Part shown: one piece after another, positions 18,520-38,047 of the stretch
Layout: every line of letters starts with the position of its first letter
How positions within the stretch are numbered: position 1 is the stretch's first letter
Assembly: GCA_963836185.1 (NCBI GenBank)
Contig: CAWIIQ010000004.1
Span: 32,001-96,000, forward strand
DNA length: 64,000 nt
Direction of reading: 5' to 3'
Origin: Candidatus Krumholzibacteriia bacterium
Lineage (GTDB): Bacteria > Krumholzibacteriota > Krumholzibacteriia > Krumholzibacteriales > Krumholzibacteriaceae
The notes under the pieces: model-generated
Databases searched by the model: none
The model's input: the letters and a program-made list of their open reading frames with translations, nothing else
What the model was told of the DNA's origin: nothing
Translations under genes and position numbers: made by a program

Positions 18520-18535
18520 TGGCATGCTAAATGCA
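18520..18535 (+). promoter_or_regulatory. sigma54 (-24/-12) promoter upstream of the ABC/beta-CASP operon
   Basis: TGGCATG-CTAA-ATGCA with GG-N10-GC spacing. Confidence 0.6.
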
Positions 18536-18618
18536 ATAAAATCTTCCGGATAACTCTGTCTGACGGGCCGGGCGGGCTCAGGAACAGGTAAAAGCAGTCG
18601 TTCCGGAAGGAGAACGGT

Positions 18619-20290
18619 ATGCCGCGCATGCGGAAAGCGATCGCTTCGGTCGTGATAACAGCTTTATTTATAACTATTTGTGGTTGCGGTGGCCAGGAGG
18701 GCGGCAGCGGGCAGGACAGCTCCGATGGCGGCGGGAAGCTCGTCATCGGGATGCAGCAGGAGCCCGAGATCCTCAACGAGGCCGTTAACAGCATGGTCGC
18801 CGTCGTCTACGTCTGCAACCTGATATTCAGCAAGTTCGTCAAGCACGACGATGCGATGAGGCTCGTGCCCGACCTGATAACCGAGGTCCCCACGATCGAG
18901 AATGGAGGCATCTCGGCCGACCATCTCGTTTACACCTATCATCTCAGGCAGGACGCCTTCTGGCACGACGGAGTGCCTGTGACATCGAAGGACGTCGAGT
19001 TCTCGTACCGGGTGATGACCCATCCCGACATCAATGTCGAGACGAGGCAGGGCTGGGATATCGTCGAGAGTGTGGAGACTCCCGACGAGCACACGGTGAT
19101 CTTTACACTCTCCGAGGTATACGCGAATTTCGCGGGTGACTGCTTCTACGACGAGTCGGTCCTTCCCGAGCATCTTCTCTCCGATGCGCTCGGCGACCGG
19201 TTCCAGTCGCACCCCTTTCACACGGCGCCTGTCGGCTCGGGCCCCTTCGTATTCGGCGAATGGATTTCCGGATCGCATATCACCGTCAGGGCCAACGAAG
19301 CTTACTATGGGGAGGGCCCCTTCCTCGCCGAGATAACGATAAAGTTTGTACCGGACGGAAACGCTCTGCTGATGCAGCTCGAGACCGGATCGGTCATGGG
19401 GATAGACAACGCGCCAGACGAACTTCTCGCGCTGTCAGAAGATCTGGCCGGGACCACGGTCTACAGGAACCCCGCCCTTTTCAACGAACACCTCGACGTC
19501 AACTGCGAGGACCCTGTCCTCTCCGACAGGAGGGTCCGCAGGGCGATCGCCATAGCGATCGACAGGAAAGAGATATCGGAGAAGATATACAACGGTGTGT
19601 GGATACCGGCGTACAGCGACGAGCATCCTGGGTCGCCGTATCACAACGGATACGGGGCGGAGAAGCTGCGCTACGACCCGCAGGAGGCGCGGCAGCTTCT
19701 CGCCGAGGCGGGCTGGAAAGATTCAGACGGTGACGGCATCAGGGAACGCGATGGTAAAAAGCTCGAGCTCGAGATAACCTCCACCGCTGGAAGGGCGAGC
19801 AGGGAGAGGACACAGGTCGTCCTGCAGAAGCAGCTCTCCGGCGTCGGTATCGATCTGAAGATAAGGAACTATCATCCGACCGTCCTGTTTGCCAGCTGGG
19901 ACGACCGCGGGATACTGAAGAGAGGGGATTTCGACCTCGCACTCTACGCTTTCCTGACTCCGCCCGATCCATCGACCAAGGAGGGGAGCTACTCGGCCGA
20001 TTTTTTCCCTCCGAAGGGACAGAACAACTCGAGGTTCAGGAACGATGAGCTGACCCGACTGCTCTCCGCGGGTAGCGCGACGGTCGGTTTTGACGAGAGA
20101 AAGAAGATATATGACAAGGTCGCGCGCATACTCGCCGAAGAGCTGCCCATCATCCCCCTTCTATGGGTGACACAACTCGACGCGATGCCTGCGGCACTCG
20201 AGAATTACAGGCCGAACCCGACGCAGTCGGGTGATACGTGGAACGCGGCGCATGTGGAGGCTCATGGCAAGGGAGGACGAAGGGCGATGA
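18619..20290 (+). CDS. Peptide/nickel ABC transporter substrate-binding lipoprotein (family 5); appears fused to the next gene by a probable 1-nt insertion near 20254
   Basis: Lipobox ICGC, WHDGVPVTSKDV, PVGSGPF, DRRVRRAIAIAIDR; removing one base near 20254 gives WNAAHWRLMAREDEGR* with TGA overlapping the next ATG (ATGA at 20287-20290). Confidence 0.85.
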
Positions 20291-21735
20291 AGGGCGCACG
20301 CAGGTTGATAACCGTCATAGCCGTGATCGCCATGGCGGCCGCGGCCCTCTACCTTCTGCGGCCCCGTGGTCAGGATGAGGGAGTCAGCGTGACCTTCCTC
20401 GGCGGAGCCCGGGAAGTGGGCGGCTCCTGCACCCTCGTCTCGGGAGGCGGGACCTCGTTTCTCGTCGACTGCGGAGCCTTCGGCGATGCCGGCAACGATA
20501 TCATACCGGACGATCCTGCCGCAGTCTCGTTCATGATACTCACACACGCTCACACCGATCATTGCGGGAAGATACCGCAGCTCTTCGCTTCCGGGTTCGA
20601 CGGCGAGATATACTGCACTCCCGAGACAGCGGAGCTCGCCCCGATCATGATGAAGATGTCGAGGAGCTTCGACCGAGGCAGGGTAAGCAAAGAGGACTTC
20701 GACAGGTCTATCGCCGCGATGAGACCCGTTCCATTCGGGGAGAAGATGACAGCCGGCCCGGTGAGCTTCGTGTTCAGGCAGGCGCAGCACCTGCTCGGAG
20801 CGGCATTCGCCGAGATCGAGATAGATACGGGGCACAGGACGGCACATGTGATCTTCTCGGGCGACCTCGGTTCCGGAGGGGCGATACTCCTCCCGCCGAT
20901 CGAGGACCCGGCGCCGGCGGATTTTGTGATAGTCGAGTCTACATACGGGGGCCGCATAAGGGATATCGAGGATAGGAGCCTGCAGGCGAGGTACGGGGAG
21001 TTCGGCAGTGCGGTCAGCTCGGCTCTCAGGAGCGGCGGCGACGTCCTCATCCCCGCCTTCACACTCGGAAGGACGCAGGAGGTGATCGCCGCCCTCGACC
21101 TTTTCATCGAGGACGGGACGATCCCGGCCGGAACGGAGATCTACTCCGACAGCCCGACGGCGAAAAAGGTAAGCGTTGTCTTCAGGAATCACCCGGAGAG
21201 CCTTTCGGCTGCCGCGGTATCGATATACGGAAACGACATCCTGAAAAAGTCCTGGCACAGGGAAGTAAGGAGCAAGACCTCGATGAAGGTCCACGGCCGC
21301 GACCACAGGCCGACAGTATTCATATCCTCGAGCGGCGATCTCTCATTCGCCAACTCGCCGCGCCATCTCGCGAGGATGGCCGGTGACGAGAGAAACCTCC
21401 TCTGCATAGTGGGATGGCAGTCGTACGGCTCGGTCGGCCGCAGGCTGGTCGAGGGGGACAGTACCGTTTCCGTCCGGTACAGGGAGGACGGCGAGACAAA
21501 GAAGGTCTGGCTCTCTCCCGCGATGAAGATAAAAAAGTTCGACGCCTTCTCGAGCCATGCCGACCAGGATGACCTGCTGCGGTGGACAAGCGCCATCGAC
21601 GGGCTCAAGGGAGCCTTCATCGTCCACGGCGAGTTGAAACAGGCGCAGGCGCTGTCAGAGAGACTCGAGGCGGATCTCGGCATAGAGACAAGGATACCTG
21701 AAGCGGGAGAGACGGTCTTTCTCCCGTCGAGATAG
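20287..21735 (+). CDS. MBL-fold beta-CASP nuclease-like protein with N-terminal signal anchor
   Basis: FLGGAREVGGSC, LVDCG, THAHTDHCG, HLLGAA, FSGDLG, ESTYG, PAFTLGRTQE, FSSHAD, VHGE; N-terminus MKGARRLITVIAVIAMAAAALYLL. Confidence 0.85.
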   Translation: MKGARRLITVIAVIAMAAAALYLLRPRGQDEGVSVTFLGGAREVGGSCTLVSGGGTSFLVDCGAFGDAGNDIIPDDPAAVSFMILTHAHTDHCGKIPQLFASGFDGEIYCTPETAELAPIMMKMSRSFDRGRVSKEDFDRSIAAMRPVPFGEKMTAGPVSFVFRQAQHLLGAAFAEIEIDTGHRTAHVIFSGDLGSGGAILLPPIEDPAPADFVIVESTYGGRIRDIEDRSLQARYGEFGSAVSSALRSGGDVLIPAFTLGRTQEVIAALDLFIEDGTIPAGTEIYSDSPTAKKVSVVFRNHPESLSAAAVSIYGNDILKKSWHREVRSKTSMKVHGRDHRPTVFISSSGDLSFANSPRHLARMAGDERNLLCIVGWQSYGSVGRRLVEGDSTVSVRYREDGETKKVWLSPAMKIKKFDAFSSHADQDDLLRWTSAIDGLKGAFIVHGELKQAQALSERLEADLGIETRIPEAGETVFLPSR

Positions 21736-21744
21736 AGGAGAACG

Positions 21745-22728
21745 ATGGGATCGAGCATCATAAAGAGACTCGCGCTGGCCGTGCCGCTCGTCGTGCTCGT
21801 CTCGGTAGTGACCTTCGCGCTGCTGCATCTGGCCCCCGGCGGGCCGGCGGGAGTCGTGTCGGGCAACCCGAAGATGACAGGCGAGGATGTGGCGCGGCTC
21901 AGGGAGAACTATGGGCTCGACCAGTCCCTGCCGGTGCAGTACCTCATGTGGTTCAGGCAGGTCTTTCTCAGGCTCGATTTCGGGACAAGCTATGTGACCG
22001 GCCGGCCCGTCACGGTGATGATTGCCGAGCGGGTACCCGCCACACTCGAACTGATGGGAGCGGCGCTTCTCCTCGCCGTTCTGGCCGGAGGCCTGCTTGC
22101 CGTGCTCACCGCCATACGCGGGAGCGAAAGGGCCGACGGGATATTCACCGTCGTCACGACGGCGGGCATATCGGTCCCCGTCTTCTGGCTGGGGCTGATC
22201 GCGATCTACATCTTCTCGATAAGGCTCGGCCTTCTGCCTGCCGGCGGAAGGGCGGCGGGCGAGGGTGTCACCCTGGCCGAAAGGCTGCGGCATCTCGCGC
22301 TTCCCGCTTCGGTCCTGTCGATCGCCTGGCTCGCCACCTGGAGCAGGTACCTCAGGTCGGGGCTGATCGATTCGCTAGGCGGCAGGTACATACGGACAGC
22401 GAGGGCGAAGGGGCTCGATGAGAGAACGGTCGTCCTCAAGCACGCCCTGCGCGGCGCGGTCCTTCCCGCGGTGACGGTCCTCGCGATGCAGATCCCCGCC
22501 CTCTTTACAGGGGCGGTCATAACGGAGACAGTCTTCGCCTGGCCCGGCATGGGAAGGCTCTTCTACGAGGGGCTGCAGAGGCAGGATTACACGAGGGTGC
22601 TCGGGATAGTGGTGATAGCTTCGATACTGATAATACTGATGAACACGGCGGGCGACCTGCTCAACATGATCCTCGACCCGAGGACGCGGCCCGTGGACGG
22701 GGAGGTGAGACAGGGTGGCACAGGTTGA
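21745..22728 (+). CDS. ABC transporter permease (OppB/DppB-like)
   Basis: YGLDQSLPVQY, YIRTARAKGL (EAA loop), TETVFAWPGMG, LDPR. Confidence 0.93.
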   Translation: MGSSIIKRLALAVPLVVLVSVVTFALLHLAPGGPAGVVSGNPKMTGEDVARLRENYGLDQSLPVQYLMWFRQVFLRLDFGTSYVTGRPVTVMIAERVPATLELMGAALLLAVLAGGLLAVLTAIRGSERADGIFTVVTTAGISVPVFWLGLIAIYIFSIRLGLLPAGGRAAGEGVTLAERLRHLALPASVLSIAWLATWSRYLRSGLIDSLGGRYIRTARAKGLDERTVVLKHALRGAVLPAVTVLAMQIPALFTGAVITETVFAWPGMGRLFYEGLQRQDYTRVLGIVVIASILIILMNTAGDLLNMILDPRTRPVDGEVRQGGTG

Positions 22729-23572
22729 TTCGATCGAAACGGCCCCGGTCATGAGACGCTCACGGACCCGCCGTTTGATATTCTGGCCGGCGACGATGCT
22801 GGTACTGATCATCACGGTCTCGGCGCTCGCTCCCCTGCTCGGCCCCTGGGACAGGGACGCGATAGACCTCGACAGCATCTCGGCTCCGCCATCGGCATCC
22901 CATCCCCTCGGAACGGACGAGCTGGGCAGGGATGTACTGACGAGGCTTCTTCACGGTGGAAGGTTCACCCTGATGGTATCCTTCCTCTCCGTAGCGGTCG
23001 CGCTCGCAGCCGGGGTGATCCTCGGAGGAGTCGCGGGCTGGCTCGGAGGTATCGCCGACAGGACGGTATCTCTGATCATCGACCTTTTCCTTTCCGTGCC
23101 GGTATTCCTGGTGATGCTCCTCGCCGCATCGGCCGCCGGAGGAAAGATCTGGCTTATCCCCCTGCTGATAGGCGGCACATCATGGATGGAGACGGCGAGG
23201 ATCGTACGCTCGAGGTTCAGGCAGATAAGGGAAGAGGGGTTTGTAGAGGCTGCCAGGGCAGCAGGAGCGACGGGACCGTGGATCGTATTTCGGCACATGC
23301 TTCCCCAGGCCTCCGGCGCCGTCCTGGTAGCGGCCACAGCAGGCCTGGCAGGCGCGATGCTCGTAGAGAGCGCCCTGAGCTTCCTCGGATTCGGTGTCCA
23401 GCCCCCCGTGCCGACCTGGGGCAACATGATGCACGGCGCCTGGGCGACGCTGCGAGTCTCTCCACTGGCTGCCTTCGCGCCCGGACTGATGATATTTATC
23501 ACATGCCTCGGATTCAACCTGCTGTGCGAGGGATACAGGCGCGCCCTTGCAAAAGAGGACGAATCGGTATAA
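22715..23572 (+). CDS. ABC transporter permease (OppC/DppC-like)
   Basis: HPLGTDELGRD, FVEAARAAGA, ESALSFLGFGVQPPVPTWG. Confidence 0.93.
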   Translation: MAQVDSIETAPVMRRSRTRRLIFWPATMLVLIITVSALAPLLGPWDRDAIDLDSISAPPSASHPLGTDELGRDVLTRLLHGGRFTLMVSFLSVAVALAAGVILGGVAGWLGGIADRTVSLIIDLFLSVPVFLVMLLAASAAGGKIWLIPLLIGGTSWMETARIVRSRFRQIREEGFVEAARAAGATGPWIVFRHMLPQASGAVLVAATAGLAGAMLVESALSFLGFGVQPPVPTWGNMMHGAWATLRVSPLAAFAPGLMIFITCLGFNLLCEGYRRALAKEDESV

Positions 23573-23582
23573 CTTCCCTTAC

Positions 23583-24614
23583 ATGGAAAAGAAAACAAGA
23601 GCGCTCGGGATGATATCGGGCGGGCTAGACAGCCTGCTCGCCGTAGCCGTGCTTAAAAATCTGGGCGTCGATATAACGGGCCTGCATTTTCTCAACGGTT
23701 TCGGCGCCGGTTCGCTGAGAAAACGGGTCTGCGAGAAGATGTCCTTCGAGGAGATCGCCGCGGACAAGAAGGAACGGCTCGAGGAGAAACTCGGCGTTCC
23801 GGTCCGTGTCATCGATGTCTCCGAAGAGTTCCTCGGAGTGCTCAGCTCCCCGCGCTTCGGGTACGGCAAGAATATCAATCCCTGTATAGACTGCCGTATC
23901 TTCCTGCTGGAAAAGGCGAGGGAGATAATGGAAGCGGAAGGATTCGATTTTATCTTCACCGGCGAGGTCCTCGGCCAGCGGCCCATGTCGCAGCACCTCC
24001 GCGCGATGAAGCAGGTCGAGAAGCAGAGCGGCCTGTCGGGAAAACTCCTTAGGCCCCTCTGCGCTAAGCTCCTCGCCGCCACAGGGCCTGAGAAAGAGGG
24101 CCTGGTCGACAGGGAGAAGCTCCTCGACATACAGGGGAGATCGAGGAAGAGGCAGATGGCTCTCGCCGATGAGCTCGGCATCGAGGACTACGCCACCCCG
24201 GCCGGCGGATGCACGCTGACAGACGAGAATTACGCGCGCAAGTATAACGACCTTGCAGGACACATGGATGAGATCACGTGCGAGGATACGGTCATCCTTT
24301 CGATGGGGAGGCACCTGCGTCTTTCCGACGGTGTGAAGCTCGTCGTTGGAAGGCGCGAGCTCGAGAACGACTACCTCGAATCGGCCTGGGGCGCAAATAT
24401 CCTCCTGACGACACTCGACCACCCCGGTCCGGTCACCGTGATGATAGGAGATCCGTCGGAAGAAGAGATCCTCCAGGCAGCCGCTGTGACGGCGAGATAC
24501 AGCGACGGCAAGCGGGAAGATTCAGTGAGGGTGTCCGTGACGAGCGGCGAGGATGTGCGTGAGTTGGAGGTCGCTCCGGCATCGGACGACGACCTAGACA
24601 GGTGGCGGATCTAG
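23583..24614 (+). CDS. PP-loop tRNA sulfurtransferase-like protein (ThiI/MnmA-related, DUF814-type C-terminus)
   Basis: SGGLDS, NPCIDC, TGEVLGQRPMSQ, PAGGC, GRHLRL, ARYSD. Confidence 0.8.
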   Translation: MEKKTRALGMISGGLDSLLAVAVLKNLGVDITGLHFLNGFGAGSLRKRVCEKMSFEEIAADKKERLEEKLGVPVRVIDVSEEFLGVLSSPRFGYGKNINPCIDCRIFLLEKAREIMEAEGFDFIFTGEVLGQRPMSQHLRAMKQVEKQSGLSGKLLRPLCAKLLAATGPEKEGLVDREKLLDIQGRSRKRQMALADELGIEDYATPAGGCTLTDENYARKYNDLAGHMDEITCEDTVILSMGRHLRLSDGVKLVVGRRELENDYLESAWGANILLTTLDHPGPVTVMIGDPSEEEILQAAAVTARYSDGKREDSVRVSVTSGEDVRELEVAPASDDDLDRWRI

Positions 24615-31311: not shown

Positions 31312-33118
31312 ATGGGCAGACGGATAGTGATTGCGTTACTTGTTGTCATTCTTGCCGCAGGTTCACTCCAGGCTGGAAGCAACACGGAAAAACGTATCGA
31401 GCGGGTCGAGAACGGCCTGTTCACGTCGGTGCTGATAACGGGTGAGCCGACATGGAACATCCTTGAGCGGATGGAACATTACGGTGTGCCTGGAATGAGC
31501 GTCGCTGTGATACACGACTTTCAGGTCGTGTGGACAAAGGCTTATGGCGTAAAGGATACCGAAACAGGGGACCTGGTCACTGAAAATACGATATTCCAGG
31601 CCGCGTCTATCAGCAAGCCGCTCAATGCCACCGCTGTCATGCGAAAGGTGCAAGACGGCGTGTTGTCACTCGACGAAGATGTGAACTCCTATCTGGAGTC
31701 ATGGAAACTTCCCGACAACGAATTTACCGCCGAACATAAAGTCACTGTAGCCAATCTTCTGAGCCATACAGGCGGAACGACCGTGGGAGGATTCCCAGGA
31801 TACAGGATGGGGACCCCGCTGCCGACAGTTCAGCAGATACTGAGCGGCGAAGCGCCTGCGAATACTCAGCCGATAGTCGTCGACATCGTGCCCGGGCAGA
31901 AATACCGCTATTCCGGGGGAGGCACGACGATACTGCAGCTTCTGCTGATCGAGCTGGAAGGCAAGCCGTATCCCGAGATAATGAAGGAAATGATCCTCGA
32001 TCCGTTTCAGATGACAGGCAGCAGTTACAGCCAGCCCCTGACGCCAGAGCTGCAGGCCCTGGCGGCGTCCGCTCATGGCAGAGACGGCAGGCCGATCGAG
32101 GGCAGGTGCCACGTCTATCCCGAGCTGGCCGCCGCCGGGCTGTGGACGACACCCGCGGACCTCGCAAGGTTCGCGATCGAGCACCAGCTTGTCGATGCAG
32201 TCAAGGTCGAACAGGATCCTCTCGGCGGAGATGGAAGAGAAGATGACCACGCCTTATATCGGTGAGACATATGGCCTGGGGTTCGTGATCCGGAATCTGG
32301 AGGATGAGATCTACTTCGGTCACAGCGGGGGGAACATGGGATTCAACTGCCTGTTGATAGCGCACGTACAGGCTGGGTATGGCGCTGTGGTAATGGTTAA
32401 CACCAACGGCATGGACCTGATCGGTGAAGTCGTCAGGTCGATTGCCAGGGAGTATTCATGGGCAGGATATGTCAAGGGACCGTATGATCTCTATTCAGTG
32501 TCACCTGATACACTGAGGCGATATACCGGACGGTATAGAATCGATACCGACGAGGTGGCGATCGTCTCCCTTGAAGACAGCCTGTTGAATGTCGATGTCA
32601 TCGGTGAAAGACCATTCAAACTCTACCCGATCTCCGGAAATGAATTTATCAGGAAGGATAGCGAAAGCCGGGCGATGTTCGTTATCGGCTCCAACCCTGA
32701 CCTTGATGTAGTCAAGCTTTTCGGTGATGGGCCGGAGATGACATTTTCGAGAATGGGTGAAGACGAGACTATACCGTTCGAATTCATGTCGTCCGGCAGG
32801 ATCGATGAAGGCGTCAGCGGCTACCGGGATATATGGAACGAGGATCGATCTGATGAAGCAGTAACCGAACGGAGACTCAACATACTTGGTTACGATCTGC
32901 TGGGCAGGGGACTGACAAAAGAAGCGATAGCACTCTTTGCATTGAACGTGGAGTTTTATCCGACATCCTCGAATGTTTATGACAGCCTTGGTGAAGCTTA
33001 TCTCAAGAACGGTGACAAGGAACTCGCGATAAAGAACTATAAGAAATCTATTGAGCTCAATCCCGAAAACTCGAACGCAGTGAAAGTGCTTGAGGAAATC
33101 AATAAAACGGACAAGTGA
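31312..33118 (+). CDS. Exported serine hydrolase (beta-lactamase/AmpC-like) with C-terminal TPR, frameshift near 32191
   Basis: SISK, LLSHTGG, YRYSGGG, HSGG; TPR segment NVYDSLGEAY..AIKNYKKSIELNP; ORFs 31312-32265 plus 32075-33118. Confidence 0.88.
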
Positions 33119-36434: not shown

Positions 36435-37286
36435 ATGGGTGTCAAAAAGAAGGCACGCTCCCACACGATAGCGCTTCTGACAGATTTCAGCTGGCACAAC
36501 TGGTATCTCGGCGTCATGAAAGGCGTGATACTCGGGATCAATCCCGAGGTCAGGCTCGTTGACCTGTGTCACGACGTCTCGAGCCAGGATGTGCGCGAGG
36601 GAAGCTTCGTGCTGGGAAACAGCTTCGAGTATTTTCCCCCTGGGACTGTGTTCCTCTGTGTCGTCGATCCGGGAGTCGGAGGCGACAGGCGTAACCTGAT
36701 CATCGAGACGGATAAATATTTCTTCGTGGGCCCCGATAACGGGATACTCAGCTGCGTATTCGAGAAAGGGATAGTCAGAAAGGTATACGCCGTCAAACAG
36801 GGCAAGTACACGCTGCCCCTTCATGGCAGGACCTTTCTCGGCAGGGATATCTTCGCTCCGATCGCTACCCATCTCACGCTGGGAGTGCTTCCCTCCGAGA
36901 TGGGTGAGACGGTCGATTCCGTTCTGACCGTTCCAGCCCTCAAGCCGTTCGTGAACAAGAAGGATGAGGTGTCGGGAAGGGCCGTCTATGTCGATACATT
37001 CGGAAACATCATTACGAATATCAGCGAGCAGTTTCTCCTCGAGCAGTTCGGCAAGAAGACCGACTGGGACGAGGTGACGGTCCGGATCGGGAAAAGACGG
37101 CTCAAGGGGATGAAACGGTATTACGAGCAGGGCAAGCTCGGGAAGCTGATGGCGCTCTTTGATTCCTGGGGATACCTCGAGCTGGCGGTCAACATGGGGA
37201 ACGCTTTCAACCTCCTCGGCCTGACCGAGAAGAAATCGCTCGAAATATTCGTATCCGGCCCCGCGCCAGCTCCGAAAAGGAAATAA
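36435..37286 (+). CDS. SAM hydrolase / SAM-dependent halogenase family protein (DUF62)
   Basis: LLTDF, YLGVMKGVI, VVDPGVG, GPDNG, TFLGRDIFAP, DTFGNIITN, GYLELAVNMG. Confidence 0.9.
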   Translation: MGVKKKARSHTIALLTDFSWHNWYLGVMKGVILGINPEVRLVDLCHDVSSQDVREGSFVLGNSFEYFPPGTVFLCVVDPGVGGDRRNLIIETDKYFFVGPDNGILSCVFEKGIVRKVYAVKQGKYTLPLHGRTFLGRDIFAPIATHLTLGVLPSEMGETVDSVLTVPALKPFVNKKDEVSGRAVYVDTFGNIITNISEQFLLEQFGKKTDWDEVTVRIGKRRLKGMKRYYEQGKLGKLMALFDSWGYLELAVNMGNAFNLLGLTEKKSLEIFVSGPAPAPKRK

Positions 37287-38047
37287 TGGCCCTGCGACTG
37301 ACAGTTCTCGGATCGGGCACGATAGTGCCCTCGCAGGTAAGGCACGCCACGACGCTTTTCGTCGAGGGCGGCGGCGAGGACATACTTATCGATTGCGGTC
37401 CGGGAGCCCTGCAGGCTCTCGAGGACGCGGGAAGATCGTATCGAGGCGTTCACAGGATACTCCTGACACATTTTCATCCCGACCATACCCTCGGCCTGGG
37501 CAGGCTCTTTTCCGCCGTAAAGAACGATACGGCGATGACCGGACGTCACTGGATCGTCATATACGGGCCGGCGGGCCTGGAGAAGTTCATCTCCGGGTGG
37601 AACGATCTCTACGGCAATATCGTGCCGGACGATGATACGCTCAATCTAGTGACGATGGAACCGGGATACGAGATCGATATCGGTGATATGATGATAACGG
37701 CCGGACCGGCCGATCACGGCGGGAGGCCCGCTCTCGCATACAGGATCGATATGGAGGGAAGAAGCATCGTCTACACGGGAGACACGTCTCGTTCGGACAG
37801 GCTCGACCTGTTTGTCTCCGGCGCCGATCTTCTCGTCTCCGAATGCTCCTTTCCGGACGAATCTCCCGCCGAGGGGCACATGACCCCCGCGACGGTCGGA
37901 GAGATGGCCGCCGCGGCGGGGGCGGGCGAGGTGCTGCTCGTACACATGTATCCGTTTTTCGGTGAGACCGATCCGGCGGCCGAGGTAAGAAGAAGATTCA
38001 AGGGAAAGGTCACGACCGGCAGGGACGGCCTTGTGATCGAACTCTGA
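37286..38047 (+). CDS. MBL-fold metallohydrolase (RNase Z/BN-like)
   Basis: VLGSGT, IDCGPG, THFHPDH, YTGDT, ECS, GHMT, LVHMYP. Confidence 0.85.
   Translation: MALRLTVLGSGTIVPSQVRHATTLFVEGGGEDILIDCGPGALQALEDAGRSYRGVHRILLTHFHPDHTLGLGRLFSAVKNDTAMTGRHWIVIYGPAGLEKFISGWNDLYGNIVPDDDTLNLVTMEPGYEIDIGDMMITAGPADHGGRPALAYRIDMEGRSIVYTGDTSRSDRLDLFVSGADLLVSECSFPDESPAEGHMTPATVGEMAAAAGAGEVLLVHMYPFFGETDPAAEVRRRFKGKVTTGRDGLVIEL

Follow-up and report, generated by a model that had tools for sequence, protein, structure and literature searches.

A beta-CASP nuclease gene with a predicted export-type anchor inside an ATPase-less Opp-type importer cluster of Candidatus Krumholzibacteriia

CPSF73, IntS11, RNase J, TTHA0252 and Cas14 are textbook beta-CASP nucleases, enzymes of the metallo-beta-lactamase (MBL) fold that process RNA or DNA inside cells, and the locus described here raises the question of why a gene for such an enzyme, fitted with a hydrophobic N-terminal segment, should lie between the binding-protein and permease genes of an importer. 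The locus belongs to a Candidatus Krumholzibacteriia bacterium whose 3.5-Mb genome, in 6 contigs, is 92.5% complete; the stretch analyzed, hereafter the window, comprises 64,000 nucleotides of this genome (G000:C4:32001-96000), and positions refer to the window unless a contig is given. On the forward strand, a sigma54-type promoter motif (18520-18535) precedes the gene for a family-5 solute-binding lipoprotein (18619-20290; Pfam SBP_bac_5, E = 6.4e-79, with a lipobox), which is followed by the gene for the beta-CASP metallo-nuclease (P0001, 482 amino acids, 20287-21735) and by genes for an OppB-like permease (21745-22728; BPD_transp_1, 3.3e-35, and BPD_transp_1_N) and an OppC-like permease (22715-23572; BPD_transp_1, 1.3e-22, and OppC_N). 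Only 9 bases separate the nuclease stop from the OppB start, and the OppB and OppC genes overlap by 14 bases. A first-pass annotation of the window had described this order, its tight coupling and the lack of any ATPase gene, and every one of these elements was found where it had placed them.

The reading favored here, and held with evenly balanced confidence, is that the nuclease is an exported, signal-anchored scavenging enzyme, co-expressed with a peptide-type importer that borrows the ATPases OppD and OppF. This model proposes that an N-terminal signal-anchor would hold the nuclease in the inner membrane with its catalytic domain on the periplasmic face, and that the firing of a sigma54 activator would lead to transcription of the nuclease gene together with the importer genes. 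The nuclease may then degrade RNA or single-stranded DNA that has entered the periplasm, for nutrient scavenging, while the importer would carry an older substrate, probably peptides and not the products of the nuclease, powered by an OppD/OppF pair that is encoded on another contig.

The enzyme and its predicted side of the membrane

The identity of the enzyme is the firmest part of this model. P0001 is matched by the Pfam families Lactamase_B, Beta-Casp (1.3e-17) and RMMBL (2.6e-13), the latter two above their cut-offs, and it has the make-up of the beta-CASP subfamily throughout, with the HxHxDH/H/D metal motifs, motifs A, B and C, a beta-CASP insert and a C-terminal RMMBL domain. Its nearest solved relative is the ribonuclease TTHA0252 (E = 1.5e-51), followed by archaeal CPSF1-type proteins, the type VII CRISPR nuclease Cas14, IntS11 and CPSF73 (E = 1e-29 to 1e-46). 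The RNase J model TIGR00649, which has a cut-off of 400 bits, scored only 25.9 and matched no more than residues 34-123, and the NCBIfam equivalog cut-offs for aCPSF1 (229.6 bits against 580.2) and Cas14 (230.5 bits against 800) were not reached either; the aCPSF1-type KH region is not present in the nuclease, as the match begins at profile position 171. Within the beta-CASP family, to which it belongs, P0001 is nearest to TTHA0252, and it is not an RNase J, an aCPSF1 or a Cas14.

An AlphaFold2 model built from a 41-row alignment has a mean pLDDT of 90.6, and its top Foldseek matches are all beta-CASP nucleases, TTHA0252 being matched with a target-normalized template modeling (TM) score of 0.91, a root-mean-square deviation of 2.7-2.9 Å and 31-32% identity. 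The HxHxDH metal motif (H87-H92, 20545-20562), which reads HAHTDH, is aligned to that of TTHA0252, and H87, H89, D91, H92, H168, D193, E217, H424 and H447 are all invariant in the 41-sequence alignment A2, their positions matching the metal motifs and motifs A, B and C of TTHA0252. In pairwise alignment, residues 347-361 (21325-21369), which form the stretch SSSGDLSFANSPRHL, stand where TTHA0252 reads AGSGMLAGGRILHHL, and within this stretch S349, G350, A355, P358 and H360 are likewise invariant in A2. Both the intact metal motifs and the remodeled CASP motif had been noted in the first-pass annotation and are upheld by these alignments. Because the catalytic residues are invariant, the fold resembles that of TTHA0252 and the SSSGDLSFANSPRHL stretch is itself conserved, the nuclease is, as judged from alignment and model, very probably catalytically active.

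What sets P0001 apart is its N-terminus. A hydrophobic anchor occupies residues 7-24 (20305-20358), preceded by K2, R5 and R6, and the structural model places a helix over residues 2-24, a low-confidence linker over 25-29 and the first strand of the core at residue 32. The conservation of this segment was assessed in 121 proteins, namely the query and its 120 best matches, of which 105 have at least 25 residues before the core; in two others the N-terminus is short, and the remaining 14 are fragments whose first 140 residues contain no core motif. A 17-residue window with a mean hydropathy of at least 1.9 ahead of the core was present in 96 of the 105, the other nine scoring 0.15-1.86 and one of them being apparently truncated, and the median uncharged run in the anchor region is 18 residues. 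The basic-hydrophobic anchor that the first-pass annotation had read from this one translation is thus a property of the family. As a control, metagenomes were scanned with alignment A2, which left 80 loci; 74 of these were screened, and the other 6 were fragments or short of upstream sequence. A hydrophobic N-terminus was found in one of these 74 ordinary beta-CASP genes (27-33% identity), and a weak one at that, and the scan gained no anchored relatives in other gene contexts. The genome's own beta-CASP paralogue (G000:C2:107505-108905, 33% identity) begins directly at the core.

The distribution of charge around the anchor allows a prediction of the side on which the catalytic domain lies. 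Averaged over the 105 relatives, the flank before the anchor carries 3.0 lysine plus arginine residues and 0.4 aspartate plus glutamate residues, against 2.1 and 1.9, respectively, in the 15 residues after it, and the net charge of the N-terminal flank exceeds that of the C-terminal flank in 92 of the 105. By the positive-inside rule, the flank with the higher positive charge is the cytoplasmic one, and the higher net charge on the N-terminal side therefore predicts an N-in/C-out topology and a periplasmic catalytic domain. The features of a type II signal-anchor are all present by our own rule-of-thumb count, these being a basic N-terminal flank, an uncharged stretch of about 18 residues and a drop in net charge beyond it. 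In terms of the export route, a twin arginine precedes the anchor here and in 49 of the 105 relatives, a fuller twin-arginine translocation (Tat) motif occurs in 26 of the 105, and TatC is present in the genome; it is possible that the Tat system exports the folded metalloenzyme in this clade, though not family-wide. In some relatives, the hydrophobic stretch is followed by signal-peptidase-like A-x-A sites, GSASA being an example.

The same helix could instead tether a cytoplasmic enzyme, and the first-pass annotation had offered as its second choice a membrane-bound RNase analogous to RNase Y. In such a case, the catalytic domain would serve RNA turnover at the inner face of the membrane, and the place of the gene in the operon would be incidental. 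The substrates of all characterized beta-CASP enzymes are intracellular RNA or DNA, and the Protein Data Bank (PDB) matches of P0001 are all of this kind; basic residues are found after the anchor as well as before it, the linker in the model is only about 7 residues long, and the same string of genes includes an RNA-binding PP-loop gene. However, the charge rule favors the periplasmic orientation in those 92 of 105 relatives, a separate paralogue free of any anchor is kept for cytoplasmic work, and the A-x-A sites seen in some relatives are typical of exported proteins. A cytoplasmic tethered RNase is, in view of both sides, an unlikely explanation of the locus.

The importer and the arrival of the nuclease

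If the nuclease is indeed held on the periplasmic side, its relation to the importer becomes the next question. The importer has the hallmarks of the Opp/Dpp type, with a family-5 binding protein whose lipobox cysteine is kept in its relatives, and two BPD_transp_1 permeases with EAA-type loops, IRTARAKGL in the OppB-like and VEAARAAGA in the OppC-like protein. The nearest solved relative of the binding protein is AppA, the oligopeptide binder of B. subtilis (4.4e-63). The co-encoded OppD and OppF of this importer type are missing, as no ATPase gene was found in the locus. Having loops of the EAA type, the permeases by all appearances require ATPases, and the first-pass annotation had proposed a search for orphan oppDF genes. 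The genome's only two oligo_HPY matches are an OppD and an OppF (G000:C2:379206-381142), encoded after an OppB and an OppC in a cluster (G000:C2:377232-381142) that has no binding-protein gene, none of the genome's five SBP_bac_5 matches lying on contig C2. A second cluster of binding protein, OppB and OppC, again free of ATPases, is found outside the window at G000:C4:19023-22424, and the genome thus holds one ATPase pair per three permease pairs. Given the EAA loops and the single oligo_HPY pair, the simplest inference is that the importer shares this one OppDF pair, although a missed pair is conceivable at the given completeness of the genome. Such an organization of Opp-type genes in an uncultured phylum, with two ATPase-less binding-protein/permease clusters and an ATPase cluster devoid of a binding protein, points to shared ATPases.

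The arrangement of the locus is conserved across its order within the Krumholzibacteriota. Matches to the nuclease of at least 44% identity are confined to the three families (f1, f2 and f3) that make up the order of the window, and genomes of other families yield only matches of 31-39%, most of which start near query residue 30. Twenty distant loci from different genera of these three families, with nuclease identities of 46-55%, were compared together with three close loci and the window, 24 in all. The synteny that the first-pass annotation had suggested examining is borne out, in that binding protein, nuclease and OppB follow one another on one strand in 20/20 distant and 3/3 close loci, and in 24/24 with the window included. 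OppC comes next in all 19 distant loci that reach that far, followed in the same 19 by a gene that in the window lies at 23547-24614 and encodes, by its Pfam matches, a ThiI/MnmA-like PP-loop protein with an NFACT-R_2 domain; this conserved neighbor 3' of OppC probably has no part in the transport function. Within the fetched stretches, about 7 kb to either side, no OppD or OppF match was found in any of the 20 distant loci.

The families outside the order reveal the likely history of the cluster. Orthologues of the binding protein (51-56% identity, E <= 1e-120) are present in 23/23 genomes of family f8 and 11/13 of f9, one f4 genome has a relative of 43% identity, and none were found in f5 (0/12), f6 (0/10) or f7 (0/91). 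In 12/12 loci of f8, f9 and f4, OppB and OppC come immediately after the binding-protein gene with no nuclease between them, no OppD/F match was found in these 12 loci, and the ThiI-like gene comes next in nine of them. Since these families carry the importer genes without the nuclease, the latter would be an insertion into an older, ATPase-less three-gene unit, which it entered between the genes for the binding protein and OppB in the ancestor of families f1-f3; loss of the nuclease in the sister families would be less parsimonious. On this comparison, the association of the ThiI-like gene with the cluster also predates the insertion. In addition, the missing ATPases are not peculiar to the nuclease system, as their absence would be older than the insertion. 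When binding proteins of the order (22 sequences) were compared with those of f8 and f9 (11 sequences), 102 columns were invariant and identical in both sets and seven were fixed differences, mostly conservative (T/S, Q/E, N/D, D/E, C/T, F/M and L/F) and located at positions 142, 144, 170, 174, 175, 288 and 515, which is weak evidence that the binding protein was not re-tuned upon the arrival of the nuclease.

These comparisons bear directly on the possibility that nuclease and importer form one pathway, in which oligonucleotides or nucleotides released by a periplasmic nuclease would be bound by the family-5 protein and taken up through OppBC. In all 24 loci, the nuclease gene has its place exactly between the gene for the binding protein and those for the permeases, it originally overlapped the binding-protein gene in an ATGA start/stop junction, and family-5 proteins for non-peptide ligands (agrocinopine, nickel and sugars) are among the weaker PDB matches of the binding protein. 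However, the same binding protein and permeases occur without a nuclease in 12/12 sister-family loci, the fixed differences are few and mostly conservative against 102 shared invariant columns, and the best solved relative binds oligopeptides, which together make a coupled pathway decidedly unlikely. Of the first-pass proposal of a periplasmic enzyme coupled to the importer, the periplasmic side is favored by the charge of the N-terminal flank, and the coupling finds no support. The boldest version of the proposal, in which this would be the first beta-CASP nuclease to work outside the cytoplasm and would form, with the lipoprotein and the permeases, a scavenging module that feeds fragments to Opp-type uptake, is quite improbable as a whole.

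Substrate, reading frame and promoter

The favored model of an exported scavenging nuclease beside a peptide-type importer assumes that the enzyme cleaves nucleic acid. An exported enzyme could conceivably act, by way of its remodeled SSSGDLSFANSPRHL stretch, on cyclic or linear dinucleotides or on phosphodiester-linked polymers, as the MBL fold is compatible with many kinds of hydrolytic chemistry, and the altered version of the TTHA0252 AGSGMLAGGRILHHL motif is itself conserved. Such a substrate is nevertheless very improbable, in that the beta-CASP and RMMBL modules are complete, motifs A, B and C are all kept, the fold is nearly identical to that of RNA-bound TTHA0252, and every characterized beta-CASP enzyme is a nuclease.

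A further point concerns the reading frame. The first-pass annotation had treated the binding protein and the nuclease as separate genes, which holds in the relatives, although in the window as given both lie in one open frame of 1038 amino acids (18619-21735) with no intervening stop codon. The two frames are joined by a single extra base at 20251-20253, in GCGCA[T]GTGG, opposite a one-column gap in all three close relatives (L003, L004 and L005; 78-81% protein identity), in which the binding protein ends in ...NAAQW(R/K)... and its TGA stop overlaps the ATG of the nuclease as ATGA. The binding-protein stop likewise precedes the nuclease start in all readable distant loci, a count from which L038 and L054 were excluded because their binding-protein matches change frame. 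A contig of the public run X1 spans 19974-20273 with four other letters in 299 and one letter missing at 20251, and contigs from X3 and X4, which represent less similar relatives, break at 20252 and resume GTGGAAG... without the T. The nuclease also retains its own ribosome-binding site, AGGGAGGA (20270-20277), which is seen in the sequence and ends 9 bases 5' of the ATG at 20287, in spite of the merged frame.

Other genes of the assembly are split as well. A family-5 binding-protein gene outside the window (G000:C6:34377-35442) is divided between two frames, and within the window a gene of PF00144, the serine beta-lactamase/esterase family (31312-33118), is spread over two overlapping frames at about 32.1-32.3 kb, matching profile positions 7-233 and 253-312 and ending in a tail of tetratricopeptide repeats (TPR). 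Taken together, the split genes suggest that indels were introduced during assembly, or that several pseudogenes are present. As the extra base is absent from the relatives and from the X1 contig, and as other genes in the assembly are split, the merged frame is probably an assembly indel, a strain-specific frameshift being less likely. Long open frames 5' of the nuclease in four other genomes (G064, G040, G057 and G069) were also considered as fusions, and rejected for the three loci that were fetched (L051, L052 and L055), in which the upstream open frame differs from that of the binding protein, which has its own stop. The chance that the 1038-residue product is a real fusion in this strain, with the lipoprotein binding domain joined through the hydrophobic helix to a cytoplasmic nuclease, is slender in the extreme, the uninterrupted frame in the window speaking for it and the unaltered close relatives, the stops of the distant ones, the X1 contig, the nuclease's own ribosome-binding site and ATG, and the other split genes all speaking against it.

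Co-expression of the nuclease with the importer would depend on the sigma54-type motif, TGGCATGCTAAATGCA (18520-18535), with its -24 GG and -12 GC elements, which lies 84 bases 5' of the binding-protein start. The motif, TGGCAT-N5-ATGCA, is the sole match in the window, where dinucleotide shuffling predicts 0.07 (a match arose in 6 of 100 shuffles), and it was already noted in the first-pass annotation. Among the 24 loci, it is kept 5' of the binding-protein gene in 23; the strict form is found in 16, and a version with one mismatch in seven of the other eight. The genome encodes rpoN and has 23 Sigma54_activat matches, none of which lie on contig C4, nor was a site for an activator identified. 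A terminator scan gave no terminator-like site above chance between the genes of the operon, and a scan for sigma70-type promoters gave matches at chance level only. Elsewhere in the genome (G000:C1:2005908, outside the window), a strict motif lies 5' of an open reading frame for a type IV pilin-like protein; pilin genes are a classic sigma54 target, and this match suggests that the motif is read in the host organism.

Two other features of the window may be recorded. Between 28001 and 36000, the G+C content falls to 0.50-0.54, against 0.58-0.62 on both sides, and the genes in this stretch include those for an esterase-TPR protein, the split PF00144 gene, a DAGK/YegS-like kinase and a TPR protein. 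At 37286-38047, a gene for a small MBL-fold protein (Lactamase_B_2), with a sub-threshold match to the anti-Pycsar protein Apyc1 (32 bits against a cut-off of 50), adjoins a gene for an S-adenosylmethionine (SAM) hydroxide adenosyltransferase.

The proposed function and its relation to known systems

Several considerations weigh against the reading of the nuclease as an exported scavenging enzyme next to a peptide-type importer. All characterized relatives of the nuclease act, to our knowledge, inside cells, and RNA and single-stranded DNA are its presumed substrates. The orientation is derived from a simple charge count and not from a trained predictor, and basic residues also follow the anchor (RPR here, with a mean of 2.1 lysine plus arginine residues among the relatives); basic residues after a hydrophobic segment can hinder Sec export. 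Further, the wider neighborhood, which runs from ResB and CcsA to NUDIX, CstA and PfkB, is also collinear in the order, and because collinearity extends over the whole of it, a shared gene order does little by itself to tie nuclease and importer together functionally. The strict sigma54 motif occurs 14 times genome-wide against about 12 expected from base composition, so that the promoter call draws on conservation and not on enrichment, and, with no RNA-seq run that holds the locus found among the public runs, co-transcription is deduced from spacing and conservation only.

If the model nevertheless holds, a lineage-wide, intact copy with an export-type anchor would extend the beta-CASP family to the cell envelope, and would add a new class of enzyme to those with which sediment microbes exploit extracellular nucleic acids. 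In full-text literature searches on exported or membrane-bound beta-CASP enzymes and on extracellular MBL nucleases, no exported beta-CASP enzyme was found in the portions of text that were retrieved (including PMC6300522, PMC12455585 and PMC3929857). What is new here is the conserved anchor, with the location predicted from it, and the position of the gene inside an Opp-type operon.

Among known systems, TTHA0252 of Thermus thermophilus is the closest counterpart of the enzyme, with the same build of MBL, beta-CASP and RMMBL domains, about 31% identity, all metal and A/B/C motifs and a TM score of 0.91. However, TTHA0252 has no N-terminal hydrophobic segment, the alignment starting at its residue 6 and at residue 38 here, it reads AGSGMLAGGRILHHL where P0001 has SSSGDLSFANSPRHL, and its gene context differs. 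The enzymes aCPSF1/FttA, CPSF73/IntS11 and Cas14 have a homologous catalytic core, but these are intracellular, and the nuclease here is without their KH and partner-binding C-terminal domains. RNase Y of Firmicutes is tethered to the membrane by a single N-terminal helix and so resembles P0001 as a nuclease with one such helix, although its HD/KH catalytic family is unrelated and the charge distribution in P0001 predicts the opposite orientation. In terms of the importer, the Opp/App/Dpp-type systems of the PepT family, such as the AppA system of B. subtilis, share the family-5 binding lipoprotein and the two EAA-loop permeases, and the present locus departs from them in having no ATPase genes and in carrying a nuclease gene between the binding-protein and permease genes. 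With regard to location, the nearest precedent is the C-terminal domain of ComEC, an MBL-fold nuclease outside the cytoplasmic membrane (PMC12455585; PMC8579336). The ComEC domain has no beta-CASP insert, is part of a polytopic DNA channel and serves transformation, whereas the enzyme described here is predicted to be held at the periplasmic face by a single anchor and is encoded within an importer operon.

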